Part shown: positions 8,084-29,571 of the stretch, piece after piece
How the letters are laid out: each line of letters opens with the position of its first letter
Numbering within the stretch: the stretch's first letter is position 1
DNA from: an uncultured Verrucomicrobiota bacterium
GTDB lineage: Bacteria > Verrucomicrobiota > Kiritimatiellia > CAIKKV01 > CAITUY01
NCBI GenBank assembly: GCA_964535015.1
Contig: CAZHRU010000003.1
Location: 3,940-67,939 of the forward strand
Reading direction: 5' to 3'
Length of the DNA: 64,000 nt
Made by a program: the position numbers and the translations under genes
The notes under the pieces: generated by a model
The model's database searches: none
Told to the model about the DNA's origin: nothing
The model's input: the letters and a program-made list of their open reading frames with translations, nothing else

Positions 8084-9324
8084 AGGAACCCCGGGGGCCG
8101 CTCGACAATGAGAGTGCTGTTATTGCCCCCCAGTCCGTGGGAGTTGATCAATACAACCCTGGCGTCAATGCGTCGGGCTTTCCAGGGGACATAGTCGAGG
8201 TCGCAGGCGGGGTCGGGTTTGTCAAGATTGGTTGTTGGGGTAAGAATTCCATTTCGCATGCCCATGGAACTGGCGATGACTTGGAGCGGGCCTGCGACGG
8301 CGAGGGGGCTGCCGATAACGCCTTTGATGGAGGTTACCGGTGTCCGGTAGGCAAGAGGCCCGAAGACTCTCTTGATCATTAACGTCTCGATGCGGTCAAT
8401 AAGGGGATGTCCGGGGCCATGGGCGGAAATATAGTCCACACTTTCTGTTCTTATGCCTGCGTTGGCAAGAGCCATACGCATGGTGTCTTCAAGGCCAGAA
8501 CCGGGTTGAGCGAGGTCGGGATCCACACGGGTAGCAAACCCGGTGATCTCGAGATAAGGCCGTACCCCACGCCTCCGGGCATGTTCAAGGCTTTCCAGAA
8601 TCAGGATTCCCGATCCTTCGGAGAGGACTCCCGAATCCCGGTCAAGGTCAAACGGACGACAGGCTTTCCCCGGGGTGTCGTTGCGCGTCGAGAGCAAACC
8701 GCCTGCTGCCATGGCTGAATAGGTCAAGGTGTTGATGGGGGCATCTGTGGCGCCACACATCCCGATTTCGGCTTTTCCGCGTCGGATCAGATCGGCGGTG
8801 GCGGCAATGGCGTCAATTCCCGCCGTGCAGGCGGAACCTGTTGTTGTGGCCTGGGTGATACGGGGGATGTATTGGGCCAATATACTGGCGGCATGATGGG
8901 GATGCGAGGCTTGAGCCAGATGGGCATGCATGCGTTCAGGCCCGTGGGCCAGCAGGCGGTCATGGATTTGGGCAACGACCTCAATGGCGATCGAACCGAC
9001 TCCCAGTATCAAAGGGAAGGGTTGATTGCCGGTGCGATGTTCCGTAAGGGATGCATCCTTGAGAGCCTCGTAGGCGGCCGCCAGGGCCATCTGGGTTTGG
9101 CGGGCGATTCGCTTGGTGCTGATATGATGCCCCACATGGACTGAGGGATTGAAGTCCTGAACTTCGCCGGCAATTCGACTTGGGTATCCGGTGGTATCAA
9201 ACGACCGGATCGCCTTGATGCCGCTCCGGCACGCAACAAGTGATTCCCAAAAGGCAGTCTTCCCTATTCCATTTGGTGCAACGACGCCCAATCCAGTGAC
9301 AACCACTCTATTGCAAATTGCCAT
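8080..9324 (-). CDS. Beta-ketoacyl-ACP synthase II-like condensing enzyme (FabF/KAS family), first gene of the kinase/NtrC operon.
   Basis: KAS N-terminus MAICNRVVVTGLGVVAPNGIGKTAFWESL...RIAGEV. C-terminal NSHGLGGNNSTLIV motif. The tracked ORF is extended; the real ATG is at 9324. There is a 4-nt overlap with the HK start at 8083. GC is intermediate (~55%). Confidence 0.8.
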   Translation of the reverse strand: MAICNRVVVTGLGVVAPNGIGKTAFWESLVACRSGIKAIRSFDTTGYPSRIAGEVQDFNPSVHVGHHISTKRIARQTQMALAAAYEALKDASLTEHRTGNQPFPLILGVGSIAIEVVAQIHDRLLAHGPERMHAHLAQASHPHHAASILAQYIPRITQATTTGSACTAGIDAIAATADLIRRGKAEIGMCGATDAPINTLTYSAMAAGGLLSTRNDTPGKACRPFDLDRDSGVLSEGSGILILESLEHARRRGVRPYLEITGFATRVDPDLAQPGSGLEDTMRMALANAGIRTESVDYISAHGPGHPLIDRIETLMIKRVFGPLAYRTPVTSIKGVIGSPLAVAGPLQVIASSMGMRNGILTPTTNLDKPDPACDLDYVPWKARRIDARVVLINSHGLGGNNSTLIVERPPGFL

Positions 9325-9559
9325 CTTCTGTTGCCTGGGGAAGGTTTCCTTATTCAAGCACTTGTGCAGAGAGAAACTTTCGTGTTGAGAAAACGCGCAA
9401 AAATAATAACTATTACCTCGCAAATATGGCGCTGAAAGGGTTATGTTCAAAAGTGCGCATCTAATGTTCAAGTTTGTACAAAGACGTCCAGCCAATTGCA
9501 AGGAATAAATCAACGAACTGTGATGGAATTGTTGGTGAGTGCTTAGAAAAGGAGATGCA

Positions 9560-10648
9560 ATGATTCGATTAAGCGGGACGATCAAGAATTGGCTATTGAG
9601 AATGGGAGAGCGAATCTTTCTCGGTGCAAGTCTGCGGCAGGCGTATCTTGTAATGGGAGGGCATATATATTTCCAGACATTGAGTGCTGCCGTCCAATTG
9701 GACTTATTTACATTGCTGGCTCGGAAAGGGCCCCTGCGACGTGAAGAGATCGCGTCAATTCTGGGGATCGATGAAAAGCCGGCACGCATCCTTTTGTTGG
9801 GATGTTCATCATTGGGTCTTGTTCGTCACGTTCGCAGGGGGTGCTATGGGAACACGAGGCTTTCGTCCTTGTTATTGAACGCTGATCATCCTCGTAACAT
9901 CCTTGCCATTATTCGCTGGCAGCATTTCATCAACTACCGAGCCATGTATTATTTCGGTGATGCCATCAAGGTTAATCGGAATGTTGGGCTTGAAGTCTTC
10001 AAGGGCGGGGGTGCAACGCTTTATGAGCGGTTATCAGCAAACCCCGAACTCGAGCAGATATTTCAAGATGCGATGCAAGCCATTTCGGTCCAGGCAAATC
10101 ATCTACTGGCAGGGTCTGTCGATTTTTCACAGTTCAAATACCTATTGGATGTCGGTGGGGGGAATGCCACCAATATCATCGCGTTAGCCAGGTGCTGTCC
10201 AGGCCTTAGAGCTGCCGTCTTTGACTGGCCTTCTGTGTGCGCCATTGCGTCCGAGAATATTCAGAAAGAAGGGTTGGCGCAAAGGCTTCAAGCCGTATCG
10301 GGAAACTGTTTCTCGGATCCGTTTCCCGAGGGAGTGGATTGCGTCCTGTTCTGTCATTTCATGACCATTTGGTCCGAGGCCAAGAATAGAGTTTTATTGA
10401 AGAAGGCCTATGAGGCTCTGCCGACAGGAGGTGCTGCAATAGTGTTCAACATGATGCAGAATGATTGTGAAACTGGGCCTCTTAGCGCCGCCATGGGTTC
10501 GCCTTATTTCCTCACATTGGCAACAGGTGAGGGGATGCTTTACACATGGTCCGAGTATGAGTCATGGATGAAGGAAGCTGGTTTTCGAAAGGTCATTGTC
10601 CAAAGACTCATTCGTGATCATGGCATTATCATCGGCATAAAACAATGA
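9560..10648 (+). CDS. SAM-dependent O-methyltransferase (class I, family-2 OMT with N-terminal dimerisation domain; CrtF/COMT-like).
   Basis: SAM-binding motif LLDVGGGNATNIIALARCCPGL. AAGGAG RBS 7 nt before the ATG at 9560. Gene and flanks are ~48% GC against ~64% for the surroundings. Confidence 0.8.
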   Translation: MIRLSGTIKNWLLRMGERIFLGASLRQAYLVMGGHIYFQTLSAAVQLDLFTLLARKGPLRREEIASILGIDEKPARILLLGCSSLGLVRHVRRGCYGNTRLSSLLLNADHPRNILAIIRWQHFINYRAMYYFGDAIKVNRNVGLEVFKGGGATLYERLSANPELEQIFQDAMQAISVQANHLLAGSVDFSQFKYLLDVGGGNATNIIALARCCPGLRAAVFDWPSVCAIASENIQKEGLAQRLQAVSGNCFSDPFPEGVDCVLFCHFMTIWSEAKNRVLLKKAYEALPTGGAAIVFNMMQNDCETGPLSAAMGSPYFLTLATGEGMLYTWSEYESWMKEAGFRKVIVQRLIRDHGIIIGIKQ

Positions 10649-10900
10649 TGTGTACATATATGTGCGGATTTAAGGTTCTTGTTGGTGTGTAGGCTGGTGA
10701 ATGGCAATGTTGTGCTGAACTTATTAACATGTTTGTACATAGGTGCATTTATGTTAATCTTGATTGTTATTTGCCATACCAGATATTGTGGTGTGAAATA
10801 GAAAATACCATACATATTGATTTTCATGATTTGGCACTGCGATTGCTATAGGACCTTGCTGTTGATGATAGCGGTGGAACAACAATAGCGGAGGTATTGA

Positions 10901-12181
10901 ATGAGCAGGATGATGCAAAAGTGGGGGTTGGTGGTTGTGGCTGTTTGCAGTGTGGCCATGGTGGGTTATGCCAACGGGTTTAGGAATCCGCCGGAGGGTG
11001 CTGCGGCGCTTGGGCGAGTTGGCGGCAAGGTGGCGCTGGCCGATGATGCGGCTGCTGTGGCGCATAATCCTGCGAACCTGACGGAGTTGAAGGGGGCTGA
11101 ACTTGAGGCATCGGTGACTCTGATCAATACCGAGACGAAGTACCGGTCGCCGATGGGCGGTTCCACGACGGATGATCCCTGGAAGTACTTGCCGAATGTG
11201 TTTTATGCGACTCCGATCGAAAATTCCCGGTATGCGGCGGGCATCGGGTTGACCACGCCGTTCGGGCAGTCCACGGTATGGGACAAAGAGAGTGTGTTCC
11301 GCTATACGGCGCCGTATTTTGCGGAGATGAAGACGGTCAACCTGAATCCCACGCTGGCGGCCAAGGTGAGCGACAAGGTGTCGGTGGCGGCGGGGTTGGA
11401 TGTGTACTGGTCAAGCCTGGATCTCAAGCAGGTGTTTCCCTGGGGGATGGTGACGGGCAACCCATTGATCCCGGACGGGGAAGTTCGGATGCAGGGCAGT
11501 GGTGTGGGTGTTGGCGGCAATGCGGCGGTGACCTTCCGTCCCGTTCCCCGGCATATCGTGGCCTTGACCTATCGGTCCGCGGTGAAGGTGGACTACGAGG
11601 GTGACACTGATTTTGCGGGATTTCCTGCGGGCGGGGAAGTTCTCGGGATTTCGCCTGGCAGTGATTTTGACACCTCCATCGAGTTTCCGACGGTGGCCGC
11701 GCTCGGGTATGCGGTGAAGATTACCGACAACGTCCGCGTGGAAGCCGATGTGGAGTGGGTGCAGTTTTCCAAGTATGAAAACCTTGTCCTTGATGCCGGG
11801 CGCAATAATCCGCTGGTGCAGCGGCCGGGCAGTGTAAACCCGATGGCCCCGGTGGCGATTCCCCAGCAATGGGATGACACGTGGACCTATGGTCTGGGCG
11901 CCGAGTGGGATGTGCGGTCCGATCTGACGTTGCGTGCGGGGTATATCTTCCTGGAAAGCCCGGTGCCGGAAACGACGCTGGCGCCGACGCTGCCGGATGC
12001 GGATCGCCATGTGATTTCGGTGGGGGCGGGTCTCCATCGAAACGGACACCGGGTCGACCTTGCCTACGGTTACAGTGTGATCGGTGACCGTGAGGTTTCC
12101 CCGGAAGCGAACCCCGCCTATGCGGGCACGTATGAGACCAGTTCCCATTTGATGAGTGTGACCTATGGCTGCACATTCTGA
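10901..12181 (+). CDS. Outer-membrane transporter of hydrophobic compounds, FadL/TodX/OmpP1 family.
   Basis: Signal peptide. The family-typical N-terminal segment ANGFRNPPEGAAALGRVGGKVALADDAAAVAHNPANLT. C-terminal Phe (…YGCTF). Confidence 0.8.
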   Translation: MSRMMQKWGLVVVAVCSVAMVGYANGFRNPPEGAAALGRVGGKVALADDAAAVAHNPANLTELKGAELEASVTLINTETKYRSPMGGSTTDDPWKYLPNVFYATPIENSRYAAGIGLTTPFGQSTVWDKESVFRYTAPYFAEMKTVNLNPTLAAKVSDKVSVAAGLDVYWSSLDLKQVFPWGMVTGNPLIPDGEVRMQGSGVGVGGNAAVTFRPVPRHIVALTYRSAVKVDYEGDTDFAGFPAGGEVLGISPGSDFDTSIEFPTVAALGYAVKITDNVRVEADVEWVQFSKYENLVLDAGRNNPLVQRPGSVNPMAPVAIPQQWDDTWTYGLGAEWDVRSDLTLRAGYIFLESPVPETTLAPTLPDADRHVISVGAGLHRNGHRVDLAYGYSVIGDREVSPEANPAYAGTYETSSHLMSVTYGCTF

Positions 12182-13361
12182 CGTGGCGGATAAAGCGACC
12201 ACGGAGACTGCGCGTCCCAAGGTTCTGGTTATTGATGATGAACGGGGTCCGCGTGAGAGTCTGCGGATCCTGTTGAAGACGGAATACGACGTGTTGTGCG
12301 CCGAGTCGGTGGATGTCGGGGTTACGATGTTGAAGGAGCATCATCCCGACATGGTGATCATGGACATCCGGATGCCGGGCAAGAGCGGCATTGAGGGGTT
12401 GAAGGCGATCCGCGACCTGGACACGGCGGTGTCCGTGGTGATGTTCACTGGATTCGGGGCGCTGGAAACGGCGCAGGAAGCCATCCGGCTGGGGGCCAAC
12501 GATTATCTCAAGAAGCCGTTCGATGCCTTTGAAATCCGTGAGGTGGTGCACCGGTATGTGCGGCGCACTCAGGTGGAAAGGCGCCGACGGCAGACCGTTG
12601 ATGAACTGGGGCAACTCAATCAGACGCTCAAGGAAGAGTTGGTGCGGAAAGAGCATCTGGCGGTTCTGGGGCGGAAGTCCGCGGAACTGATGCACGACAT
12701 ACGGCAGCCGTTGACGGCGGTCACGGCGTATGTGGACCTGTTGTCCTCCGAGTTGAAGGACGTCCAGACCCATTTTGGGGACCGCTGGCAGGAGACCTCG
12801 GCGTACCTTGATAAAATCGAAAATGGCGCGGAACGGTGCAGGCGACTGGCGGACATGTGGCTGGACATCAGCCGTGGGAAACTGAACCGCGCACCGATTC
12901 GGGTTCAGGAGATTGGTGATGCCGTGGTGCATGACTGTCGTTCGCTGGTTGACGAGAGGAAGGTGGTCCTGATGGTCGAGATGGATGATGGAGCCACTGT
13001 GATCAATGTTGACAGGATGCAGTACACGCGGGCGCTTCAGAATCTCCTGGTGAATGCCGTTGAGGCGGTTCAACCTGGCACTGGACGGGTGAAGGTGTGG
13101 TGCCGGTGTGATGGGGGACAGGTTGAACTGGGTGTTGAGGATAACGGCTGCGGGATGAGTCCGGAGCAAATCAAGCGTTCGGTGGAGCCTTTCTTCAGCA
13201 CCAAACCGGGAACGGGAACGGGTCTTGGGTTGTTCATTGCGCGTCAGGCGGTGGAAGCGCATGGTGGCACGATGCGGATTGAGAGTGAGACTGGCAAGGG
13301 GACGAGGATCACGATAACGGCGCCCTGTGGTGATAATACAAGTAGTCAGAATCCAGAATGA
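12165..13361 (+). CDS. Hybrid two-component protein: receiver domain fused to HisKA/HATPase_c kinase core. Alternative GTG start at 12183.
   Basis: REC domain KVLVIDDERGPRESL...MDIRMPGKSG. H-box LMHDIRQPLTAVTAYVDLL. ATPase EDNGCGMSPEQIKRSVEPFFSTKPGTGTGLGLFIARQ. Confidence 0.8.
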   Translation: MAAHSDVADKATTETARPKVLVIDDERGPRESLRILLKTEYDVLCAESVDVGVTMLKEHHPDMVIMDIRMPGKSGIEGLKAIRDLDTAVSVVMFTGFGALETAQEAIRLGANDYLKKPFDAFEIREVVHRYVRRTQVERRRRQTVDELGQLNQTLKEELVRKEHLAVLGRKSAELMHDIRQPLTAVTAYVDLLSSELKDVQTHFGDRWQETSAYLDKIENGAERCRRLADMWLDISRGKLNRAPIRVQEIGDAVVHDCRSLVDERKVVLMVEMDDGATVINVDRMQYTRALQNLLVNAVEAVQPGTGRVKVWCRCDGGQVELGVEDNGCGMSPEQIKRSVEPFFSTKPGTGTGLGLFIARQAVEAHGGTMRIESETGKGTRITITAPCGDNTSSQNPE

Positions 13362-13393
13362 ATCACCGACGAGCGCAAAGGCTAGTGTGCAAA

Positions 13394-13420
13394 GGGAGTG
13401 AGTTTATTGCTCCCTATTCT
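13394..13420 (+). terminator. Putative bidirectional terminator hairpin between convergent genes.
   Basis: Stem-loop GGGAG-tgagtttattg-CTCCC followed by TATTCT. It is flanked by an imperfect inverted repeat cagaatccagaa / ttctgaattctg (13346-13440). Confidence 0.45.
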
Positions 13421-15117
13421 GAACCCTGACTTCTGAATTCTGAATACCCATCCGGTAATGCCGTATGGTTGATGGAACGGGCGAGATCGCTGATGGTGTC
13501 CGTGTCGCCTGAGAAGAAGGCGCCGAGGGCCGTGTCACGGAAGAGGCCAGCCTCCATGCCGGCCTGAACGCTCATCAGGTAGGTTTCGTCGCTGATGGAG
13601 GTGGGGATTCCGAGGCGACCGACTTTGCGGGCGAATGCGCCTGTCATCCCCAGCACCTTGCGGTAGGAGCGCCCGTCAATTTCGATGGGCATGGAGTTCC
13701 AGAAGCGGGGAGGCAACTGGAGTTTGACTTTCCAGGTCATGGCTACGTTGAGGTACTGGTCGGGGTCGGCGAACCGGATACGGTACTGGTCGGGCGACTG
13801 GAACCAGGCGGTTCGTGGGGCGACGATGGGTGCCTGAAGCATGAGGGAATGGAGTCCGACATTTTGAAGCAAGGTGAGAGTCTCCGCTTCCGACTGAGCG
13901 GTTTCGCCTGGACAGGGGAAGATCACGCTGCCGACGGTGAAGATTCCTGCGGCCTTGCATCGGAGGAGGGCGCGCCGGGTATCCTCGACCCGAATGCCTT
14001 TGCGTAGCGCATCCAGGATGGGTTGGGAGCCGGACTCGATGCCAAAGAAGAGGGAGACGCATCCGGACCGGCGAATGGTTTCAAAATCCGCGTCATCGGC
14101 TTCCCGGATATGGGCGAAGGAGGCGTAGCGCAGGGGGAGTTTTTCGTTCAAGGTGGCCCGTGCGAATTCGTTAAGGAGGGTATAGGGCGTGCAGGAGCCT
14201 GCGAAACGGAAGGCCCGGATCCCGTACCGGTGATCCAAGTCCCTGACTTCCGCCAGGAGGCGGGTAATACTTTTGAGGCGGACGCTCTTGTTGCTTTTCA
14301 CGGGGTGGACGCAGAAGGTGCAGGCGTTGCGGCAACCGCGGCTTTCGTCGATCACCATGATTTTGATTTTCTCGTCGCCCGCCATGGCGGGATAGACGGC
14401 GGGGTCGTAGATGGGGAGGGGAAGGTCGTCCAGATTGGCCACCATGAGTTCGTCGGTAAAGCGGATAGTGCCGCCGGGTTCCATGAAGATCAAATTGGGG
14501 ATTTCGCCCAGGGTCTTGTTTTCGGCGCCGTGGCGAGCGAGCATGACGATGGTGTGTTCGCCCTCGCCGTGGGCGAGGGCGTCGAAGACGGGGTAGCGGC
14601 GCAGGATGCGGTCCATAAAGAGATCCACATGCGGACCGCCGCCGAAGATGCGGAGGTGCGGGTGGCGATGACGCAGGATGGAGGCGAGGCGGGCGGAGCC
14701 CTCGAGGCCATCGCCATTCCAGAGTTTAAAGCCCACGGCATCGATGTGGTGTTCTTCGACGGCATCGGAAAGTTCGGCGCCGATGATCTCAATGGCCTGT
14801 TGCTGGAGGTGGCGGCGTTCGGTTTCGGCGCGTTGCAGAATCGGCAGGGCGACCAGGCGGCGCAGGGCGGTTAGAGGGCCGGGGTCCGGTTGGCGGAGGG
14901 CCTGCCACTCGCGGGCGAGGCGATGGCGGAGATCTGGGGAGGTCATCCGGCGAATCGTTCCGACGGTAGAGAAGTCGAGGATGCGGACGGTGCGACCGTC
15001 CTTGAAGAGGGCGCCGGCCAGGTTGGCCAGGCCGTTGTCGGGCATCAGGCTGTTGGGTGCGAACGGATACCCGGCATAGTTGACGAGCAGCCAGTTCTGG
15101 AGTGGTTTAGTCGGCAT
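13414..15117 (-). CDS. B12-binding-domain radical SAM enzyme (class B radical SAM; methyltransferase or other cobalamin-dependent radical enzyme).
   Basis: CxxxCxxC motif CRNACTFC. Rossmann-like N-terminal cobalamin-binding domain. 3-nt spacing from the upstream paralogue. Confidence 0.8.
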   Translation of the reverse strand: MPTKPLQNWLLVNYAGYPFAPNSLMPDNGLANLAGALFKDGRTVRILDFSTVGTIRRMTSPDLRHRLAREWQALRQPDPGPLTALRRLVALPILQRAETERRHLQQQAIEIIGAELSDAVEEHHIDAVGFKLWNGDGLEGSARLASILRHRHPHLRIFGGGPHVDLFMDRILRRYPVFDALAHGEGEHTIVMLARHGAENKTLGEIPNLIFMEPGGTIRFTDELMVANLDDLPLPIYDPAVYPAMAGDEKIKIMVIDESRGCRNACTFCVHPVKSNKSVRLKSITRLLAEVRDLDHRYGIRAFRFAGSCTPYTLLNEFARATLNEKLPLRYASFAHIREADDADFETIRRSGCVSLFFGIESGSQPILDALRKGIRVEDTRRALLRCKAAGIFTVGSVIFPCPGETAQSEAETLTLLQNVGLHSLMLQAPIVAPRTAWFQSPDQYRIRFADPDQYLNVAMTWKVKLQLPPRFWNSMPIEIDGRSYRKVLGMTGAFARKVGRLGIPTSISDETYLMSVQAGMEAGLFRDTALGAFFSGDTDTISDLARSINHTALPDGYSEFRSQGSE

Positions 15118-15120
15118 ACG

Positions 15121-16800
15121 TTATCCGATCCTGTCCGGTCGTGAAGTCTGTTGATCTGCCTGGCGGACCAGGTTTAGCAAGGCGGCGCCGCCATCATCCG
15201 GAAGTTGTTTCAGGCGGTTTTTCTGGAAGGCGTCGCGAAACTCCATGATGCGTCTGGTTTCGGGGACGGGCCACTCGGGGGGGAAATGTTCCAGGTACAG
15301 GTGGGAGGGTCCGGAGACGCGTTCAAAGATCGTGCGCATTGCCTCGCGGGCCTCGGTCGAATCCATGGTGTTGTGCGACCATGTTTCGCCGGTTCCCTTC
15401 AGGCCGAATTCCTCGCGGCGTTCGGGGGTGGCGGCGGGGCAGAGGGGGACGACTTCGAAACGGAACATGTAGTAGCGATGGATGGCGCGGGCGTTGCCGC
15501 CGGAAGGCATTGAGGAGATGAGATCTGCCGTGTTTTGGATCGAGGCGGCACACTCGCCGGGGAAGCCGACCAGGAATGTGCATTGGGTACCGATGCCGTG
15601 CCGGTCCAGGAGGGTGATGGCGCGCAGGGCCTTTTCGGGGTCAAGGTGTTTTCGCATATTGTGCAACACGGTTGGGTCGCCGGATTCGATGCCGACGAGG
15701 CATTCGCGGCAGCCGGACTCGGCCATGAGTGCGGCGGCTTCCTCATCGATGGCGTCGGCCCGGATGAAAGCACGCCAGGTCAGGCCGAGGTTTGCCTTGA
15801 CGAGAGCGCGCGTGAATTGTGTGATCCGGTTACGGGTGACGGCCAGGTTATCGTCGGTAAAGAAGACGCGGCGCGGCGCCGGCATGGCTGCGGACAAGGT
15901 GCTCAGCTCGCTGAGGAGGCTATCGACTGAGCGCAGGCGGGGTTCATAGAGGCCCATGAAGTCGCAGAACTCACAACGGAACGGGCATCCCATGGCGGTG
16001 CGGATGGGGGCCTCGAAATGCTTGAGACGGTCCGTGTGCTGACGCCAGTCCACGATACTGCCGTCGATATCGCTGGTTTCCGGGACGGTCGAGTTGAAGT
16101 GGTAACCGGAAGGTTTTGGGATGGCGAGGTTGGGGAGATCGCGGAAGTCCCTGTCTTCGGCGAGGCGGCGGGCAATGGCGGCAAGGGTATTTTCGCCACC
16201 TTCGCTGACGATGAGCGCATCCAGGTCGAGATCGCGGGAAGCGTCGACGAGGAAATAGTGTTCGGCGACTTCACCGGGTGACATTCCGCTGAGTCTGCCT
16301 TCCTGCAGCAGTTTGCGGGCGCGCAGGCCTTTGCGGACTCCGACGCCGCCGGCGACGATGGGGATGCCCGGGGCGGCGGCCTTGAGGCGTTGGGCGGCAT
16401 TACGGATGAGGGTGGCGCCGTGCGACCCGGGCAACCAGGTGGTGGACAGGGCGATCAGCCGGACGCCGTTGGCAATGGCCGCATGGACGGTATCCATGCC
16501 GGTTTCGAGGCATGGAATTTCCAGCAGATTCAACCCGAGGCGGGCCATGTGATCCTTCAGGAATGGGCCGGTGAGGACAGGGGAGGTGCCCATGGAGGCC
16601 CGGATGCGTGCCAGGTGTTGGAAGGCGGCCTGCGGATCGGGACTGGCCAAGGCGCGGAGGACTGGGAATGAAGCCACTTGATTGTGGAGTTCGAGGCGCA
16701 AGGGTTTGTAGACGGCGGGATCGCCGGTGTCACGGGGCGCCAAAATCTGTGAGATAAACAGAATGTCAATTGTAGACACTGGTTTCCTCCGCACATCCAA
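15121..16800 (-). CDS. B12-binding-domain radical SAM enzyme (paralogue of the downstream gene).
   Basis: CxxxCxxC motif GCPFRCEFCDF. N-terminal B12-binding domain ...IALSTTWLPG...PIVAGGVG. Own promoter region 16801-16932, which is lower in GC. Confidence 0.8.
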   Translation of the reverse strand: MDVRRKPVSTIDILFISQILAPRDTGDPAVYKPLRLELHNQVASFPVLRALASPDPQAAFQHLARIRASMGTSPVLTGPFLKDHMARLGLNLLEIPCLETGMDTVHAAIANGVRLIALSTTWLPGSHGATLIRNAAQRLKAAAPGIPIVAGGVGVRKGLRARKLLQEGRLSGMSPGEVAEHYFLVDASRDLDLDALIVSEGGENTLAAIARRLAEDRDFRDLPNLAIPKPSGYHFNSTVPETSDIDGSIVDWRQHTDRLKHFEAPIRTAMGCPFRCEFCDFMGLYEPRLRSVDSLLSELSTLSAAMPAPRRVFFTDDNLAVTRNRITQFTRALVKANLGLTWRAFIRADAIDEEAAALMAESGCRECLVGIESGDPTVLHNMRKHLDPEKALRAITLLDRHGIGTQCTFLVGFPGECAASIQNTADLISSMPSGGNARAIHRYYMFRFEVVPLCPAATPERREEFGLKGTGETWSHNTMDSTEAREAMRTIFERVSGPSHLYLEHFPPEWPVPETRRIMEFRDAFQKNRLKQLPDDGGAALLNLVRQADQQTSRPDRIG

Positions 16801-16932
16801 TGATGTTCATATTTCCGCAGAATGTCAACGAGAAGCCCCCGATCTGGTGAGGGGTTATTGTTGAAGTTTGACTGCCATAAGGGGTTAAGACGGCGAGTAT
16901 CTGCAGGATTCTCAACATGGGCGCAGGCGCTT

Positions 16933-17703
16933 TCAGGTCCGGCCGCCCAGGACAGCGGTCACGGCTTTCAACAGGTCGGGGGGGGTGCTGGAGCTTACAA
17001 ACCTGTCCACATTGGTAAACTTGGCGTCGGGGTTGTGGAGCCCGCTGGAGTCATAGACGATGACGGAAATACCGCTGGCATTGGTGAAGGGTGCCAGGCT
17101 GGCGGCGATAGAACTGCCCGCCATTCCGGGCAGCATTTCCTTCAGCAGGATCACATCCGGGGTTCGTGCCTGCAGGGATTCAACCAATGTCGAGTTATCG
17201 TGCAGGATGGTGGTTTCGTAGCCGGCGGCGGTGAAGAAGCTACGCAGGCGCATGGAAAGGCGAGGCTCGTCTTCGATGATCATCAAATGGGGATGGTGGT
17301 GGTGCGCGTTACAATTCCGGCCGGCCTTTTTGTGTTTGAGCAGGATGCGTTCGATCTCCCGTGTCAAGAGCGTTGGATCGCAGGTTTTGGCGAGGAATCC
17401 CTCGACGGCGGTATCGGCGAAGAACTGTTCCATATTGGCACGTGCCGTGAAGACCAGGACGGGGTAGCGGGGTTTCTCGTCGGCGCCGGAAATTCTTTTC
17501 AGGAAGGCGAGGCCGGTCATTCCGGGCATGCTGATATCCAGGATGATCAGGTCGGGGGTGAGCGTCCGCAGGACTTGCAGGGCCTGGTCGCCGGTTTCGG
17601 CGGTGACGACCTCATAGCCGTCCAGGCGGAGTTGGTCGCCGACACTAAGGAGGACAGCGGGGTCGTCGTCCACGAGTAGAATCCGGTCCTGTGTGGTGGT
17701 CAT
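16933..17703 (-). CDS. Response regulator consisting of two tandem receiver domains, with no output domain.
   Basis: REC1 LLVDDDPAVLL...ILDISMPGMTG. His-rich linker HHHHPH. REC2 LMIIEDEPRLS. 4-nt overlap with the upstream hybrid kinase. Confidence 0.8.
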   Translation of the reverse strand: MTTTQDRILLVDDDPAVLLSVGDQLRLDGYEVVTAETGDQALQVLRTLTPDLIILDISMPGMTGLAFLKRISGADEKPRYPVLVFTARANMEQFFADTAVEGFLAKTCDPTLLTREIERILLKHKKAGRNCNAHHHHPHLMIIEDEPRLSMRLRSFFTAAGYETTILHDNSTLVESLQARTPDVILLKEMLPGMAGSSIAASLAPFTNASGISVIVYDSSGLHNPDAKFTNVDRFVSSSTPPDLLKAVTAVLGGRT

Positions 17704-19370
17704 GTGGGTTTCTCCTGTCGTACGGGTTGAAAGGGAGTGATGCCGATCAAGGTGCTTTCGATCAGTTCGTGCAATTCCCTCATGTTCCAGGGTTTGCGGA
17801 GGGAAGGGATGGAAAACCGGTTCAAGAGGTCCTTGGTGTTTTCATCCACTGAAGCCCCGGTGACGGCCACGATGGGGACAAGGCGGGTGGCGGGGGCCTC
17901 CTTGAGTTGGAGGATGACATCGGAGCCGTTCATGTCCTCGAGATGGATATCCATGAGGATCATGCTGGGCGGGGCATTCAGGGCGCGTCGGAGGATGGCC
18001 TCGCCGTCGGTGAGGGAATCCACCCGGTAGCCGCGGGCGATCAACTGGGCGGCCAGCAGGGCTTGGATGGAGAGGTTGCTGGTGGCGATGAGCAGGGAGG
18101 GAGTGGGGGCGACCGGCAGGGAGATGGTGACGCAGGTGCCGTTTGGGGCGTTTGGCGGGGGGCTGGCGATGTCGAGACTGCCGCCGTGGAGGTGCATGAT
18201 CTCCTTGGAGATTGCCAGGCCCAGGCCGGTGCCGGAGATATGGGTCCCCACGCGGAAGTAACGCTCGGTTACACGTTGGAGGGCGGCGGGTGGAATGCCG
18301 ATGCCGTTATCGGCAACGGAAATGGCCGCCAAGCCCGGCGGGTCACTTGCGGGGAAGATGCTGATGGTGATGCGTCCACCGGCGGGGGTGAACTTGATGG
18401 CGTTAGACAGGATGTTCTGCAGGACGCGTTGAACCATGCCGGGGTCGCAGAGGACAAAGTCCAGACCGCGAGTGGCACCGACATTCAGGGTGAGGCGGGC
18501 CGCTTCGATTTGGACGCGCAGGGAATCAGTGGTGCGGGAGATCAGGTAACGGAGGGGCGTGGCGACGGGGTTGATGGTCAGGGCATGGTTATCCAGGCGG
18601 CTGACATCGAGGATGCGGTCAATGGTGCTCACGAGGCGTTCGCACTCTGAGTCGAACATTTTCAGGTAGCGGTTGGCCTGGTCGGGCAGGGGCCCCGCGA
18701 TGCCCTTGAGCAGGTTACGGGTGCCGTACATGATGGACGTCAACGGGGTCTTGAGTTCGTGGGAGACATTGGCGACGAACTCCGATTTTTCCTTGTTGTG
18801 GCGTTCGAGTTTGACGATGGCTTCGCGCAGTTGCTGTTCCGTCCCGATACGGCGCGTGATTTCAGTCTGGAGGGCATCCACGGCCCTGGAGAGTTCGGCG
18901 GCGCGTTGCTGGACCCGTTCCTCAAGTTCGTCGCGGGAGGTGCGGAGTTCGACTTCGATGCGTTTGAGTTCAGCCTGGGCAAAGTGACGTTCGAGGGCGT
19001 GCCGGATGACGCGTTCCAGCATTTCGGGTTCGAAGTGGCCCTTGATGAGGTAGTCGGCGGCGCCGCCATGGATGGCAAGGGTTTCGACGGTGCTGTCCTC
19101 CATGCCGGTCAGGACGACGAAGGGAGCATGGAAGCCTTTGGTTGCGGCGGCGCGCATCAATTCGAGGGCGTCATGACCGATGTCGAGTTTCAGGTCGGTG
19201 AGGCAGAGGTCATAGGTAGTGTTGGTGAGGCGGTCGAGAGCGTCGTCATAGGAGTAGGCGAGATCAGCGACGAAGCGGGAGGACTTGCTGCGGGCCAGCA
19301 TGGCGCTCGTCAGCAGGGCATCCTCCCTGTTGTCATCCACCAGCAGTACTTTAATGGTATCCAGTCTCAT
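17700..19370 (-). CDS. Hybrid sensor histidine kinase: REC - coiled coil - HisKA - HATPase_c - REC.
   Basis: N-terminal REC domain VLLVDDNREDALL. H-box VANVSHELKTPLTSIMYGTRNL. ATPase SVADNGIGIPPAALQRVTERYFRV. C-terminal REC domain ...ILMDIHLEDMNGSDV. Confidence 0.85.
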   Translation of the reverse strand: MRLDTIKVLLVDDNREDALLTSAMLARSKSSRFVADLAYSYDDALDRLTNTTYDLCLTDLKLDIGHDALELMRAAATKGFHAPFVVLTGMEDSTVETLAIHGGAADYLIKGHFEPEMLERVIRHALERHFAQAELKRIEVELRTSRDELEERVQQRAAELSRAVDALQTEITRRIGTEQQLREAIVKLERHNKEKSEFVANVSHELKTPLTSIMYGTRNLLKGIAGPLPDQANRYLKMFDSECERLVSTIDRILDVSRLDNHALTINPVATPLRYLISRTTDSLRVQIEAARLTLNVGATRGLDFVLCDPGMVQRVLQNILSNAIKFTPAGGRITISIFPASDPPGLAAISVADNGIGIPPAALQRVTERYFRVGTHISGTGLGLAISKEIMHLHGGSLDIASPPPNAPNGTCVTISLPVAPTPSLLIATSNLSIQALLAAQLIARGYRVDSLTDGEAILRRALNAPPSMILMDIHLEDMNGSDVILQLKEAPATRLVPIVAVTGASVDENTKDLLNRFSIPSLRKPWNMRELHELIESTLIGITPFQPVRQEKPT

Positions 19371-19451
19371 GGTAGACGTTGGGGAACGACGTCTCGATCA
19401 CTGACTGGAGAGTAACCCGTTTCCAGGGCATCCGGTCAAGTGAAATACACG

Positions 19452-20597
19452 TCAGAAAAGCCAGGAGAGGTCATCGTCGCTGGACGGCGGCCTGGTTTTT
19501 CGGCGGGGTTTGGAGGGTTTACGCGGGGGTGGGGGATGGGTTGCCTGCCATTCCAGTTCGGCTAACAGGGCATCGATGGAATTCAACTCGGTGGCGAGAT
19601 CGTCCGCTTCGTCGGTAAGATCCGCGCGGATTCGCCGGATGAACGCGGGGTTCTTGATGCGGGTCTGGTAATCCCAGGCGGGGTTTGACTTGGCGCGCCG
19701 GATTTCCGAACGGGTGGATTGGAGGGATTGCTTCAGTTTGCGGATCAGAAGATGAATTGTGGAAACGGGGGTATGGGCGCCGAGGCCGGTTTCTTCGTTA
19801 TCACAACGGGCGAGGATGCTCTGGAGGGCCTGGGTATCATGTCGGGAATAGGCCGCCTGTGCCTCGTGCCAGAGGTTCTTACGGGCCTCGGACATGTGGC
19901 CGTGATGATCGGGATGGAGGCGGCGGACGATGGCCCGGTAGAGTTCCTTGATGGTCTTTGTCTCGGCGTGTGATCGATGCGGGGTTCGTGCGGGAGGGCG
20001 GGCACCGAAGAAACTCTCGAAAAAGTCGCTGAAGTCATCGTAGTCGTTATCCGGGATTGATTCGAAGTCCTCGTCATCCAAGCCGAAGATGTCATTCCTG
20101 TCGTCGGCATCCTCCTCTGGGTCGTGGGCGTCGGGGTTCTGTTTGCGGCGTTGTTCCTCCTCCTGGGCCAGGCGGAGGTCTTCTTCTTCGGCCTCCTTGG
20201 GGTGGGCGCGGCGCCACTTGGCCTTGAGGTAGGCCTCGGGTTCGGAGAGGTTGCGGTGGCGGACAAGGAAACCGATTTCGTTGACTAGGGCCTGTTTGTC
20301 GCGGATTTTTTCAACCAGTTCGCGGGAGTTGGTGAGGATCTGGCCGAAGGTTTGATGGAGCCATGAGCGGAAGCCGGGGATATCGCGCTCGTGGTGTTGC
20401 TTCAATTGGGATTTCAGTTGTTCCAGGGAGCGTTCGTGTTTCTGGTAGTCCTTGAGTGCTTTCTTGCGGATGGTATTGGTGTTGAGGGGGATGATGCTTC
20501 GGATGGGGTTGGCGGGAGGGCGGGGAGCCAGCGGGGGGCGGCCGCGGCGGGGGGTGTACGGGACGGACAAGGGGCGGTATTTTCGTGACGGCGGCAT
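19452..20597 (-). CDS. Hypothetical protein with an internal J-domain-like segment (HPD motif) and a highly acidic stretch.
   Basis: J-like segment KELYRAIVRRLHPDHHGHMSEARKNLWHEAQAAYSRHD. Acidic segment EEDADDRNDIFGLDDEDFESIPDNDYDDFSDFFESFF. Start uncertain. Confidence 0.45.
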   Translation of the reverse strand: MPPSRKYRPLSVPYTPRRGRPPLAPRPPANPIRSIIPLNTNTIRKKALKDYQKHERSLEQLKSQLKQHHERDIPGFRSWLHQTFGQILTNSRELVEKIRDKQALVNEIGFLVRHRNLSEPEAYLKAKWRRAHPKEAEEEDLRLAQEEEQRRKQNPDAHDPEEDADDRNDIFGLDDEDFESIPDNDYDDFSDFFESFFGARPPARTPHRSHAETKTIKELYRAIVRRLHPDHHGHMSEARKNLWHEAQAAYSRHDTQALQSILARCDNEETGLGAHTPVSTIHLLIRKLKQSLQSTRSEIRRAKSNPAWDYQTRIKNPAFIRRIRADLTDEADDLATELNSIDALLAELEWQATHPPPPRKPSKPRRKTRPPSSDDDLSWLF

Positions 20598-20639
20598 GAC
20601 GTGTGGCTTAAGAGAAAGTGCGATGGTGAGGGGTGATGT

Positions 20640-21377
20640 TTACGGGGCGGAGTCGATGGCGTAGTCGAGGGTCACGACGGCCTTGGCGGTCTTCTCAATG
20701 GAGGAGGTGTCGTACTCGCCATATCCGGAAGTGTCGGTGGAGTGCCGTTCGGTGATCTGAAAGACGCCCTGTTGCGCGGAGATCAGGGAGCCCACTTTGC
20801 CTTTGCTGCCTTTGGCGAGGGCCAGGGCACGACGGTAACCGTCATCGGTCGCCTGGGCGAGTAACCGGAGTTTCGTATCCTTCAGATCGGTGACCATGAA
20901 CATGGGGGCGGAGGCCCTGATATCCACATCGTCCCGGATCAGGTCCGTGATGCGGGTGGCGGTGTCACGGATGAGGACGACATTGGTGGAGGTGACGGTA
21001 ATGTCCTGGGTTACATCGTAATATTCGGTCTCGTTGGTTTCTTTGCCTTGGAGATCGCGTTTGGCGACTTTGGAGTTGTTGATGGTGTGAAGTACCGTTT
21101 CACTGTCGCGCAGACCCATTTGTTTTATGAGGGCGAGGGTGGCGTTGCGGCTGGACTGCAGTTTGTCGTAGGCGTCTTTCATGCTGTTCCCGCGCGCGGA
21201 ACAGGTGCAGGAGAATTTGCCGACATCGGAGGTGATATCGGCCTCGGCGTAACCTTTCACGGTGATGGCCTGTTCATGGCGGATGCGGAGGAAGAACTTG
21301 GAGAGCATCGAGGCCGACAGGATCATGCCTGCCGCCAGGATGAGGGCGGCGAGGGAGAGTTTCATCAGGTTATTCAT
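20640..21377 (-). CDS. SIMPL-domain (DUF541; YggE / 26 kDa periplasmic immunogenic protein family) protein.
   Basis: Signal peptide MNNLMKLSLAALILAAG. Real start at 21377; the track ORF is 5'-extended. Family-like segments ...ITVKGYAE...VTQDITVTS.... Confidence 0.65.
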   Translation of the reverse strand: MNNLMKLSLAALILAAGMILSASMLSKFFLRIRHEQAITVKGYAEADITSDVGKFSCTCSARGNSMKDAYDKLQSSRNATLALIKQMGLRDSETVLHTINNSKVAKRDLQGKETNETEYYDVTQDITVTSTNVVLIRDTATRITDLIRDDVDIRASAPMFMVTDLKDTKLRLLAQATDDGYRRALALAKGSKGKVGSLISAQQGVFQITERHSTDTSGYGEYDTSSIEKTAKAVVTLDYAIDSAP

Positions 21378-23247
21378 GGGGGGCCTTTGGGTTTGAGGTG
21401 TTTGTGTTATGGAGGCGAAGGATGGTTTCGACCACTTTGGCGGGGGAGAGGATATCGGTGTCGATCTGGTGGGGTATGGATCCGTACAGGGATTTTCGTT
21501 TTTCGAGCAACTCCCGGATACGCTGGAGGCGGTCCTGCTCCTCAAGGAGGGGGCGGTGGTTTGCCTTGGCGGTGCGCTTGAAGATGGTATCGGGCGAGGC
21601 AGTCAGGCAGACCATCAGGCCGGTGCGCTGGTAATCGCGGATGTTGTCGGGGTTAAGGACGACCCCGCCGCCACAACCGATCACCAGTCCCTGGCGGGCG
21701 GATAATTCCTTGGTGAGTTCGCGTTCCATGTTGCGGAAATGGGGTTCGCCCTCCTCGGCAAAGATACGGGTGATGGATTTGCCGGCTCGCGCCTCGATCA
21801 TGTGGTCCATGTCGATGAACTCCATGTTGAGTCGGTTGGCCAGTTGTTTGCCGACGGTGGTTTTTCCGGTTCCCATAAAGCCCATGAGGACGATGTTCTT
21901 TTGGGAAGGATTGATGGTTGATGGTTGATGGTTGATGGAAGAGGAGAAGACCTGGATGCCGTCGCGGAAGGTCATGACGGCGCGTCCCTGGAGGGACCAG
22001 CCTTCGAACGGGGTGTTGCGGGATTTCGAGGCAAAGGAGTCGGCATGGACAGTCCATTCGGTGTTCAGGTCGAGGAGGACCAGGTTGGCGGGTTGGCCCA
22101 GGGCGAGGCTGGGGGGTGGCAGGCCCAGGATGGCGGCGGGGCCGGTGGTCCAGCGGGCCACCCAGTCCGTCAGGGAAAGGAGTCCTTTGCGGACGAGGAG
22201 GGAGAAGGTGACGCCGACGGCGGTTTCGAGGCCGATGACGCCGAAGGGGGCCCCGGTGAAACCGCGGGCCTTGGAAGCGGCGGTGTGGGGCGCGTGATCG
22301 GTGGCGAAGCAGGCGATGGTGCCATCAACGAGGCCATGTATGAGTTCCTCGCGATCGGCGAAGGATCGCAGGGGTGGATTCATCTTGAAGGCATCCGCAC
22401 AGTCGGGGCGGACGTCGTCATCGGTCAGGGCGAGATGATGGGGGGTCAGTTCGGCAGAGACGTGGAGTCCGCGTTGTTGGGCGTTGCGGATCAGTCTGAC
22501 GGATTCACCGGCGGAGAGGTGTTGGATATGGATGGCGCCGCCGGTGGTTTCGGCCAGGCGGATATCGCGGGCGACGATGGCGGTCTCGGCTTCGGAGGGA
22601 ATGCCGGGCAGGTTGAGGGTTTGGGATCGGAGTCCATCATGCATGACGCCGTTGCCGGCGAGGCGCGGGTCGAGGGCGTGATCCATGAGCGGGTGACCGG
22701 TGGCGGCAGAGCGCCGCATGGCTTCCTCCATGAGGGAGGTATTGGTGACGGTGCAACCGTCGTCGGTAAAGGCCACGGCGCCGGCCCGGGCAAGCGCCTC
22801 GATATCGGTGAGGGCGTGGCCGGCGCGGTTGCGGGTGATGCAGGGGGCGGGCAGGACACGGGCGAGGTTGGCGGCGGCGGCGCGGGTGGCGAGGGTGGCG
22901 ATCTCGGCCGGGCAATCCATGGCGGGATTGGTGTTTGGCATGGCGACGATGGTGGTGAAGCCGCCTTGGACAGCGGCCCGGCAGGCGGTTTCGACGGATT
23001 CCGCCGCTTCGTTGCCGGGCTGGCGCAAATGGACATGCAGGTCAATCAGGCCCGGCACGGCCACAAGGTTGGTGCCGTCAATGACGGTACAGTCCGGGGG
23101 AAGGGAGGAATGGTTGATGGTTAATGGTTGATGGAGAATGGGGAGAGGGGCAAAGACGCCGTTTTGGATGAAGAGGTCGCCGATGAAATCCCGGTTTGAG
23201 ACGGGGTCCACGATGCGGGCGTTCTTGATATACCATGAAGGGTTCAT
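21370..23247 (-). CDS. pyrC: Dihydroorotase (class I amidohydrolase, PyrC-like) fused in-frame to a C-terminal shikimate kinase (AroK) domain. Alternatively, two genes whose separation was erased by a repeat insertion.
   Basis: DHOase motifs VPGLIDLHVHLRQPG and ATDHAPH. After ...AVMTFRDGIQVF the linker SSSINHQPSTINPSQK is encoded by (TTGATGG)4. AroK P-loop NIVLMGFMGTGKTTVG with no intervening stop. Real start MNPSWYIKNARIVDP at 23247. Confidence 0.7.
   Translation of the reverse strand: MNPSWYIKNARIVDPVSNRDFIGDLFIQNGVFAPLPILHQPLTINHSSLPPDCTVIDGTNLVAVPGLIDLHVHLRQPGNEAAESVETACRAAVQGGFTTIVAMPNTNPAMDCPAEIATLATRAAAANLARVLPAPCITRNRAGHALTDIEALARAGAVAFTDDGCTVTNTSLMEEAMRRSAATGHPLMDHALDPRLAGNGVMHDGLRSQTLNLPGIPSEAETAIVARDIRLAETTGGAIHIQHLSAGESVRLIRNAQQRGLHVSAELTPHHLALTDDDVRPDCADAFKMNPPLRSFADREELIHGLVDGTIACFATDHAPHTAASKARGFTGAPFGVIGLETAVGVTFSLLVRKGLLSLTDWVARWTTGPAAILGLPPPSLALGQPANLVLLDLNTEWTVHADSFASKSRNTPFEGWSLQGRAVMTFRDGIQVFSSSINHQPSTINPSQKNIVLMGFMGTGKTTVGKQLANRLNMEFIDMDHMIEARAGKSITRIFAEEGEPHFRNMERELTKELSARQGLVIGCGGGVVLNPDNIRDYQRTGLMVCLTASPDTIFKRTAKANHRPLLEEQDRLQRIRELLEKRKSLYGSIPHQIDTDILSPAKVVETILRLHNTNTSNPKAPHE
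21911..21938. repeat. Tandem heptanucleotide repeat (TTGATGG)x4, located in-frame at the PyrC/AroK junction.
   Basis: Direct reading: ttgatggttgatggttgatggttgatgg. Confidence 0.9.
23109..23141. repeat. Degenerate heptamer tract (aatgg ttgatgg ttaatgg ttgatgg agaatgg) inserted in-frame in the N-terminal loop of PyrC.
   Basis: Encodes the extra PILHQPLTINHSS segment between conserved DHOase beta-strands. Same family as the 21911 and 26127 tracts. Confidence 0.85.
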
Positions 23248-23352
23248 ATGTCGGACTTGATGTATACACCAGCGGCGGCTTGACAGAAAAGCGATAAATG
23301 GTAGTTTGAACCCCTTTTCAGTGGGATTGCAGAGGTTAGTGAGGGACAAACG

Positions 23353-23487
23353 ATGAAGATGACGTATCAGCCGAAGAAGAAGAAGCGCCAGCGCAAGTGT
23401 GGTTTCAGGAAACGTATGAAGACGGTTGGAGGCCGCAGGGTGATTGCCAGTCGCCGTCAAAAGGGTCGGAAAAAGCTTTCCGAGTAA
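23353..23487 (+). CDS. rpmH: 50S ribosomal protein L34.
   Basis: Not in the ORF track (44 aa). Translation [44 protein letters not shown] matches the L34 consensus, and rnpA lies downstream. Confidence 0.9.
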
Positions 23488-29431: not shown

Positions 29432-29571
29432 GGCGGGTGAGTGCGCCGAAAAGGCGGTGGTTATTCCAGCAGATTTCCCAAATTCGGAGTTTGTTCCTCT
29501 CATTGAAGTGCACCCGGTTGCATGGTAGTGTTCGCATTCAATGGGGCTTCACAACAAGGCGATGGTGCACA

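Follow-up and report, generated by a model that had tools for sequence, protein, structure and literature searches.

Genes 2185-16779 of a 64-kb stretch of DNA from a Kiritimatiellia metagenome-assembled genome (MAG), hereafter called the window, can be read as one conserved and apparently undescribed module, a reading to which we give about even credence. Its core consists of a class-B (B12-binding) radical S-adenosylmethionine (SAM) enzyme (rSAM-B), an atypical FabF-fold ketosynthase (KAS), a FadL-family outer-membrane channel, two sensor histidine kinases (HK1 and HK2), a histidine kinase with a receiver (REC) domain (REC-HK) and a sigma-54 activator; a second radical-SAM enzyme (rSAM-A) and an O-methyltransferase (OMT) are accessory. 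We infer that the module, coupled to a two-component/sigma-54 system, produces or tailors a hydrophobic molecule derived from fatty acyl groups, which may be a signal. Public annotations label both rSAM enzymes 'hypothetical protein', and literature searches combining the cluster components found no description of such a cluster, probably because all carriers among the 80 genome loci introduced below are MAGs or assemblies of uncultured organisms.

The locus was compared with relatives found by scanning an rSAM-B alignment against one genome per species, which gave 99 relatives; 80 loci were retained, and the window proteins were run by tblastn against these and against loci fetched via rSAM-A homologues. 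Neighbouring open reading frames (ORFs) were clustered de novo and then scanned with Pfam and with NCBIfam (18,950 models with curated cut-offs). A locus is called closer if its rSAM-B is at least 45% identical, and flanks are called full if they reach at least 5 kb on each side. The nearest species-representative contig, JBIJCW010000004.1 (L008), encodes an rSAM-B with 95% amino acid identity.

Along with rSAM-B, all ten closer loci with full flanks (10/10) have KAS, FadL, REC-HK, HK1 and HK2, and FadL and REC-HK are each kept in 23 of 23 closer loci. KAS and HK1 accompany rSAM-B in 13 of the 25 distant loci with full flanks. Phyla with the cluster include Kiritimatiellia, Lentisphaerae, Chlamydiota, Omnitrophota, Ratteibacteria, Zipacnadia and Armatimonadota; a URO-D/MtaA-like protein recurs in Zipacnadia and Armatimonadota-type loci. 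In L033 (Chlamydiota), L056 (Omnitrophota), L068 (Ratteibacteria) and others, rSAM-B, KAS, HK1, HK2 and the regulator follow each other in this order on one strand. The junctions in the three named loci measure -20 to +1 nucleotides (nt), except for a small ORF between HK1 and HK2 in L068, indicating that enzyme and signalling genes are co-translated units there.

Seven loci have no KAS, and in all seven (7/7) a FeeM/OlsB-type N-acyltransferase gene lies directly downstream of the rSAM-B homologue (37-40% identical). These loci belong to two Woesearchaeota, an Aenigmatarchaeota, two Methanosarcinales, Phycisphaerae (L041) and an unclassified organism (L053); the archaeal and unclassified ones are L035, L037, L044, L047, L053 and L061. 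Distant rSAM-A homologues adjoin FeeM genes too, in a Planctomycetota MAG and a Spirochaetales MAG (L001, L002). As KAS and FeeM both act on acyl thioesters, this exchange of partners is the strongest comparative argument for fatty-acyl-derived substrates of the rSAM enzymes, and the archaeal rSAM-B/FeeM loci may represent an archaeal N-acyl amino acid pathway. The rSAM-B homologues of L044 and L061 (Methanosarcinales) and of L053 adjoin genes for a KaiC-like ATPase and for a protein that matches V4R; at 20.8 bits against a threshold of 31 the V4R assignment was rejected and is kept as a lead only. In five Brocadiia loci (L057, L060, L076, L081, L084), the rSAM-B homologue directly follows a PrsT-like TPR protein (278 bits against 312) within exopolysaccharide loci that contain a sugar phosphotransferase and a nucleotide-sugar dehydrogenase; three of these (L076, L081, L084) have a sigma-54 promoter 63-79 nt upstream of the rSAM gene.

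Both rSAM enzymes have intact SAM cluster motifs (CRNACTFC in rSAM-B, CPFRCEFC in rSAM-A), as read in a first-pass annotation of this DNA, and the three CxxxCxxC cysteines are invariant in both family alignments. rSAM-A starts with GTG behind GGAGGA, giving 552 amino acids as in public gene calls, and 3 nt separate its stop from the start of rSAM-B. The first-pass annotation had described the two as paralogues in tandem, each with a B12-binding domain. They are adjacent, but not close paralogues: their identity is 28% over 247 core residues and their best family models differ, so they are neither recent paralogues nor tandem duplicates, and on sequence grounds they are distant members of one superfamily that belong to different subfamilies. 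The B12-binding domain (PF02310) stands for rSAM-B, which scores 41.3 bits (gathering score 32.1) and has the domain in all its listed homologues; rSAM-A reaches 18.6 bits, below that threshold, only some of its homologues carry the domain, and the evidence for this enzyme is a fold match to cobalamin-dependent rSAM enzymes. AlphaFold (AF2) models built on the family alignments have a pLDDT of 90.9 for rSAM-B, with MgmA, TsrM, AprD4, CysS, TokK and OxsB as top Foldseek matches, and of 91.9 for rSAM-A, with TsrM, MgmA, AprD4 and CysS. AprD4 is the sole member of the rSAM-B fold matches that does not bind cobalamin. Most of the rSAM-A model can be aligned with TsrM, MgmA and OxsB.

For neither enzyme is a cut-off reached by any of the 18,950 NCBIfam models, in keeping with the candidate undescribed system of the first-pass annotation. 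The best model for rSAM-A is TIGR04479 (PhpK/BcpD; 221.8 bits against a cut-off of 600, with 95.5 for rSAM-B); the best for rSAM-B are ApyD (131.8 against 750) and rSAM_ocin_1 (TIGR03975; 99.5 against 282). Scores for rSAM-B and rSAM-A, respectively, are 28 and 22 bits with HpnR (cut-off 650), 97 and 87 with HpnJ (578), 69 and 56 with BchE (481), and 68 and 65 with the ladderane-type model TIGR04072 (360). No tetraether synthase chain appeared among the PDB sequence matches (E<=1e-3) or the 50 listed Foldseek matches, for a PDB copy of unverified coverage. A scan of the whole window against Rfam gave no match, so the genes have no cobalamin riboswitch or any other known RNA in their vicinity.

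rSAM-A, with about 60 database clusters of homologues, is an accessory gene: it adjoins rSAM-B in only two (L008, L011) of the 80 genome loci and also in L006, L007 and L171, which were retrieved via rSAM-A homologues, and in L169 and L170 it belongs to similar clusters whose second rSAM is a different one. A metagenome scan with the rSAM-A alignment was unusable: the back-translated patterns were too generic and returned only generic rSAM enzymes of 21-33% identity. In L004/L072 (CAZUFC010000041.1), rSAM-A and rSAM-B homologues flank a 1950-amino-acid Ser/Thr-kinase/GAF/PAS/histidine-kinase protein, and a protein of about 750-910 amino acids with a sub-threshold PilZ match (22.3 against 22.5 bits) also lies between the rSAM homologues. 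A similar giant kinase adjoins a further rSAM-A homologue, and a REC-HD protein and an HPt protein adjoin one in another metagenome contig.

FabF structures align with the whole length of the KAS (E 3e-75). In the alignment with FabF 1j3n, the catalytic Cys, first His and Lys of the KAS are kept, and the second catalytic His gives way to Ser in the window and, across 37 full-length cluster-linked copies, to Asn (21), Gln (10) or Ser (6). A His at this position was seen only in KAS copies outside the cluster. In 35 of 36 copies, His takes the place of the Phe in the NSFGFGG loop of FabF, creating the motif NSHG, and the score with the FabF model TIGR03150 is 336.9 bits, below the cut-off of 493.75. 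The sub-cut-off score, the replaced second His and the newly conserved NSHG His indicate that this protein is not a housekeeping FabF but represents a distinct, constrained subfamily; the NSHG His may be a relocated catalytic His. The signature of Cys-His-Asn/Gln/Ser plus NSHG is of enzymological interest on its own.

KAS, HK1 and HK2 form a single tightly packed minus-strand operon that ends in the regulator (2185-3585), the operon's final gene in 19 loci; HK1 overlaps the KAS stop by 4 nt. About 7-8 hydrophobic segments lie within the first 260 amino acids of HK1, and its orthologues in L033 and L056 match HisKA_7TM with 56 and 53 bits, respectively (cut-off 28.6). The regulator combines a Sigma54_activat domain (227 bits) with REC and HTH_8 domains, and the best-scoring models of the kinase and regulator pair are AtoS and AtoC. 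Membership in the PEP-CTERM PrsK/PrsR system was rejected, with PrsR at 382 bits against a cut-off of 503 and PrsK at 79-101 against 300. A GAF-GGDEF-REC-HD-GYP protein (3-2162, plus strand) is encoded convergently with the regulator.

FadL, OMT and REC-HK are encoded on the plus strand, convergent with the rSAM genes. The Toluene_X match of FadL spans profile positions 3-421 of 421 and its N-terminus is hydrophobic and signal-like; with the E. coli FadL equivalog model it scores 93.6 bits, short of the cut-off of 585. The start of REC-HK overlaps the FadL stop, and the orthologue of REC-HK in Zipacnadia-type loci is the REC-HK-REC protein (E 9e-55). Upstream of FadL lies the element TGGCACTGCGATTGCT, the sole zero-mismatch match to TGGCAC-N5-TTGCW in the window, and the same element (<=1 mismatch, GG/GC intact) precedes the FadL homologue in 22 other loci of several phyla. 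At a background of 0.057 sites/kb (both strands, all loci), about 0.4 chance matches would be expected in all FadL upstream regions. The promoter and the gene overlap together identify FadL and REC-HK as a sigma-54 operon. Both parts of a sigma-54 two-component regulon are therefore found, an enhancer-binding regulator and a -24/-12 promoter at a target gene with predicted activation, and regulation of the FadL/REC-HK operon would most obviously fall to the sigma-54 activator of the cluster itself.

Table 1. Positions in the window, strands and supporting evidence for the module genes, the neighbouring kinase and receiver genes and two promoter elements
Feature	Position	Strand	Evidence or remark
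REC-sigma54 AAA+-HTH_8 enhancer-binding regulator (AtoC/NtrC-like); core	2185-3585	-	Pfam, NCBIfam
HK2, cytoplasmic GAF-PAS-HisKA-HATPase kinase; core	3582-5588	-	Pfam; no predicted transmembrane segment
HK1, polytopic (seven-transmembrane (7TM)-type)-PAS-HisKA-HATPase sensor kinase; core	5585-8083	-	Pfam
KAS, FabF-fold ketosynthase, Cys-His-Ser + NSHG loop; core	8080-9324	-	ketoacyl-synt N and C domains
OMT, family-2 O-methyltransferase; accessory	9539-10648	+	Methyltransf_2 + Dimerisation domains
Sigma-54 promoter TGGCACTGCGATTGCT	10832-10847	+	53 nt upstream of FadL ATG
FadL/TodX-family outer-membrane channel; core	10901-12181	+	Toluene_X (PF03349) 206.5 bits
REC-HK, REC-HisKA-HATPase kinase; core, co-transcribed with FadL	12165-13361	+	Pfam
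rSAM-B, class-B (B12-binding) radical-SAM enzyme; core	13414-15117	-	Radical_SAM 58 bits, B12-binding 41.3 bits, CRNACTFC
rSAM-A, class-B-fold radical-SAM enzyme, PhpK-like core; accessory	15121-16779	-	Radical_SAM 67 bits, CPFRCEFC
Sigma-70-like promoter TTGACA-17-CATCAT	16800-16828	-	10/12 consensus positions, in 153-nt gap upstream of rSAM-A
REC + pseudo-receiver protein, His-rich linker NAHHHHPH	16933-17703	-	Pfam Response_reg x2
Hybrid kinase REC-HisKA-HATPase-REC	17700-19370	-	Pfam Response_reg x2, HisKA, HATPase_c

The OMT differs from its neighbours in composition, with a GC content of 0.49 and a third-position skew of 0.12 against 0.36-0.51, and it is absent from L008, where 329 bp take the place of 9314-10810 (1.5 kb). 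The absence from L008, the GC content and the weak skew together indicate a recently inserted accessory gene. It is found in only four other loci (L007, L012, L016, L021), and its identity to those copies is 72-78%, above the similarity of the flanking genes, which suggests movement between clusters. The first-pass annotation had listed FadL, a family-2 OMT and a FabF-like KAS as neighbours of the rSAM genes, and all three are real by Pfam; conservation of the neighbourhood is strong for KAS and FadL and does not extend to the OMT. Its proposal of a lipid or hydrophobic substrate stands, in the form that the KAS/FadL linkage points most readily to a substrate that is acyl or hydrophobic. With that linkage conserved and no family cut-off reached, we found the opposite of what the first-pass annotation had said would speak against it: enzymes of a characterised family in an unconserved neighbourhood.

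As the product of the module we prefer a signal to an envelope lipid or a processed exogenous compound, although this preference is tentative. KAS would take acyl-ACP (ACP: acyl carrier protein) from fatty-acid synthesis and build a fatty-acyl-derived scaffold, and rSAM-B would modify it at an unactivated carbon by cobalamin/radical-SAM chemistry, most likely C-methylation; in this genome, rSAM-A could provide a second radical step and the OMT a cap. The hydrophobic product would pass the outer membrane via FadL and be sensed in the membrane by the 7TM kinase HK1, from which phosphoryl groups would flow through HK2 and REC-HK to the sigma-54 activator and switch the FadL/REC-HK operon on. An activator that switches on FadL and REC-HK would create positive feedback, making this a lipid-type signalling cassette. 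According to one report (PMC9938287), long-chain acyl-homoserine lactone signals in Sinorhizobium are modulated by FadL. In its widest form, the proposal is that of an unrecognised class of lipid-derived cell-cell signalling, in which an acyl scaffold made by KAS or a FeeM/LuxI-like enzyme is marked by an rSAM enzyme, re-enters through FadL and is read out by a 7TM kinase; this we regard as possible at best. If true, radical-SAM-tailored autoinducers would be in use in a wide range of uncultured anaerobic phyla, perhaps also in DPANN and methanogen-related archaea, and the mark set by a cobalamin rSAM enzyme at an unactivated carbon would give the signal its specificity.

Several observations weigh against the proposed mechanism. 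The cluster has no ACP, thioesterase or exporter, and a sigma-54 promoter was not detected ahead of the rSAM genes in the window. HK1 of the window itself gives no match to HisKA_7TM. The best PDB sequence match of rSAM-A is the cobalamin-free AprD4, so rSAM-A might be something other than a methylase. The classical role of FadL channels is import, and uptake of a foreign compound fits equally well. Pairs of KAS and B12-binding rSAM enzymes occur in membrane-lipid pathways (ladderane-type clusters). Immediately upstream of rSAM-B, 11 Kiritimatiellia/Verrucomicrobiota loci encode an LpxC-like paralogue (72 bits, cut-off 187), a hint that the product is an envelope glycolipid and not a signal.

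That LpxC-like gene is also part of the case for regulated remodelling of envelope lipids, in which KAS and the rSAM enzyme(s) would make a branched or modified fatty acid for membrane or outer-membrane lipids, the product would be structural, and HK1 would sense the physical state of the membrane, like DesK, and adjust the pathway. We consider this conceivable and hold it with low confidence. KAS with a class-B rSAM enzyme is the expected pairing for specialised fatty acids, HK1 is polytopic and the Brocadiia homologues of rSAM-B lie in exopolysaccharide/PrsT-like loci behind a sigma-54 promoter; rSAM-B also matches the 'lipid biosynthesis' B12-binding/radical-SAM model TIGR04072, but weakly and far from its cut-off. 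The cluster contains no glycerolipid, ether-lipid or lipid A acyltransferase genes, however, the only genes behind its sole promoter attributable to the activator are those of an uptake channel and a kinase, not of an enzyme, and the FeeM-type partners, according to their family annotation, make free N-acyl amino acids. The FeeM-type synthases that pair with the same rSAM family where KAS is absent also argue against uptake and conversion of an exogenous hydrophobic compound, with FadL for import, the kinases for sensing, induction by sigma-54 and transformation by the rSAM enzymes and KAS. A FadL-family gene driven by sigma-54, as found here, is the classic layout of hydrocarbon-uptake operons (TodX/TbuX/XylN), and AtoS and AtoC are the best models of kinase and regulator; yet enzymes of the KAS I/II fold are biosynthetic condensing enzymes and the conserved core has no CoA ligases, beta-oxidation or ring-cleavage genes, and we judge this explanation unlikely. 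Much less probable still is maturation of a ribosomally synthesised and post-translationally modified peptide (RiPP), with the rSAM enzymes C-methylating a precursor peptide as do ApyD, PoyC and the TIGR03975 enzymes. Although ApyD and rSAM_ocin_1 are the best NCBIfam models of rSAM-B, both scores are far under the cut-offs; KAS and FadL are the constant partners, and the core has neither protease nor ABC exporter. The small-ORF analysis found no candidate precursor, so this explanation was rejected: within 2.5 kb of rSAM-B no small ORF is conserved across the 80 loci, the recurrent ones being frame shadows of conserved genes, and a 50-amino-acid ORF in the gap upstream of rSAM-A is unconserved even in L008.

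A last alternative concerns regulation. The first-pass annotation had read the hybrid kinase and double-receiver protein encoded upstream of the rSAM genes as a dedicated phosphorelay that controls the tandem rSAM enzymes from one operon of four genes. The four minus-strand ORFs are present within the coordinates it gave, the genes are adjacent, the double-receiver gene overlaps the kinase stop by 4 nt, L008 has the same arrangement and a REC-HK-REC kinase of the same architecture occurs in related clusters of other phyla; even so, we think such a relay improbable. The pair accompanies the rSAM genes only in L008 and is missing from L006, L007 and L011, where the rSAM-A/rSAM-B pair is present (the contig of a 76%-identical rSAM-A relative begins 130 nt upstream of the gene, before any kinase pair could show). 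With an E value of 7e-25 against the conserved REC-HK-REC protein, compared to 9e-55 for the protein encoded at 12165-13361, the hybrid kinase is, judged by these scores, not an orthologue of that protein. Its HisKA domain carries the H-box SHELKTP, and Pfam found no HPt domain in either protein of the pair. The receivers were read by alignment to CheY: the N-terminal ones of both proteins are canonical, and the C-terminal receiver of the hybrid kinase keeps Asp, Thr and Lys and has no acidic pair. In the second domain of the double-receiver protein, Lys takes the place of the phospho-Asp and the conserved Thr and Lys are missing, which makes it a pseudo-receiver, so that of the module read by the first-pass annotation the His-rich linker and the absence of a DNA-binding output stand and the second functional receiver does not. 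The pair therefore offers neither an Asp in every receiver nor the HPt of a multi-step phosphorelay. The gap of 153 nt upstream of rSAM-A does contain a sigma-70-like site, as the first-pass annotation had it, but this is weak evidence because the region is no richer in such sites than shuffled sequence; the gap's only TGGCA-containing site was rejected as a sigma-54 promoter, as it has no invariant -12 GC and no site with <=2 mismatches turned up there. Nucleotide identity to L008 is 95.1% for 4092-9313 and 95.4% for 10811-16828, and falls to 86.6% for 16903-20599, with the break located exactly in this gap. Because of the site and the drop in identity the four genes are probably not one operon, and the kinase/receiver pair (16933-19370) is a lineage-specific neighbour of uncertain relevance outside the conserved core.

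Beyond the pair, a highly charged Pro/Arg/Asp-rich protein of 381 amino acids is encoded at 19452-20597 (minus strand); its DnaJ match is sub-threshold (18 bits) and it is 80% conserved in L008. Apparent gene fusions lie at 21370-23460 (minus strand) and at 35473-36543, 36559-38241 and 29422-32550 (plus strand) and join a dihydroorotase-like amidohydrolase to shikimate kinase, Sua5/YrdC to a low-molecular-weight phosphotyrosine phosphatase, RpiB to serine hydroxymethyltransferase, and fucose pyrophosphorylase to a GHMP kinase. The plus strand has a GC skew of 0.2-0.43 (2-kb windows) throughout 1-64000, strongest in 1-40000 and weaker after about 40 kb. The excess of G over C sits in third codon positions (+0.36 to +0.62 on the plus strand) irrespective of the strand of the gene, which points to a replication-type mutational bias far beyond the usual bacterial level.

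Most of what is known of class-B radical-SAM enzymes comes from antibiotic, cofactor and archaeal pathways. The module would place their chemistry in a fatty-acyl context and join it to a two-component/sigma-54 circuit, which is without precedent, in lineages with almost no known biology. KAS and rSAM-B, with or without rSAM-A and the OMT, are a small clonable set for finding a new modified fatty-acyl metabolite, and the gene set offers a test between lipid signals and active remodelling of envelope lipids in uncultured anaerobes.

Among characterised enzymes, the cobalamin-dependent methylases TokK/ThnK, CysS, MgmA and TsrM have the same architecture as the two rSAM enzymes, with an N-terminal Rossmann/B12 domain (a candidate one in rSAM-A), a CxxxCxxC barrel and a C-terminal helical domain, and TokK, CysS, MgmA and TsrM match both in fold with Foldseek E values of 1e-16 to 1e-19. 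In their solved complexes, TokK and CysS bind substrates linked to pantetheine; a substrate bound to an acyl carrier here would be consistent with this. Identity between cobalamin rSAM methylases and the rSAM enzymes of the window is only 13-18%, no family cut-off is reached, and the partners are KAS, FadL and two-component/sigma-54 genes, whereas the known methylases are found with antibiotic or methanogenesis genes. rSAM-A resembles PhpK/BcpD (TIGR04479), its best hidden Markov model, over residues 191-501, which comprise the radical-SAM core and the C-terminal domain; it differs in that 168 N-terminal model positions are unmatched and no phosphonate/phosphinate genes are nearby. Unlike FabF/KAS II, the cluster KAS is encoded by a gene that is translationally coupled to sensor kinases.

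The anammox ladderane-type clusters (TIGR04072) likewise combine a FabF-like gene with a B12-binding rSAM enzyme, although the rSAM enzymes here score only 65-68 bits against 360; we know of no ladderane-type cluster built around kinases, a sigma-54 activator and FadL. TodX, TbuX and XylN share with the cluster a FadL-family gene directly behind a -24/-12 promoter and a cognate enhancer-binding regulator, but the cluster has no catabolic enzymes and its regulator is of the phosphorylated NtrC/AtoC type and not a V4R ligand-binding XylR. As in the CqsA/CqsS-LuxO, PhcBSR and RpfF/RpfC systems, synthase genes stand beside membrane sensor kinases. LuxO is, like the cluster regulator, a sigma-54 enhancer-binding response regulator (340 bits with the LuxO model), and the REC-kinase of the cluster recalls PhcR. 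These lipid quorum-sensing circuits differ from the cluster in their synthases: the cluster has no CqsA, PhcB, RpfF or LuxI, its scores stay below the family cut-offs, and its role in signalling is putative.

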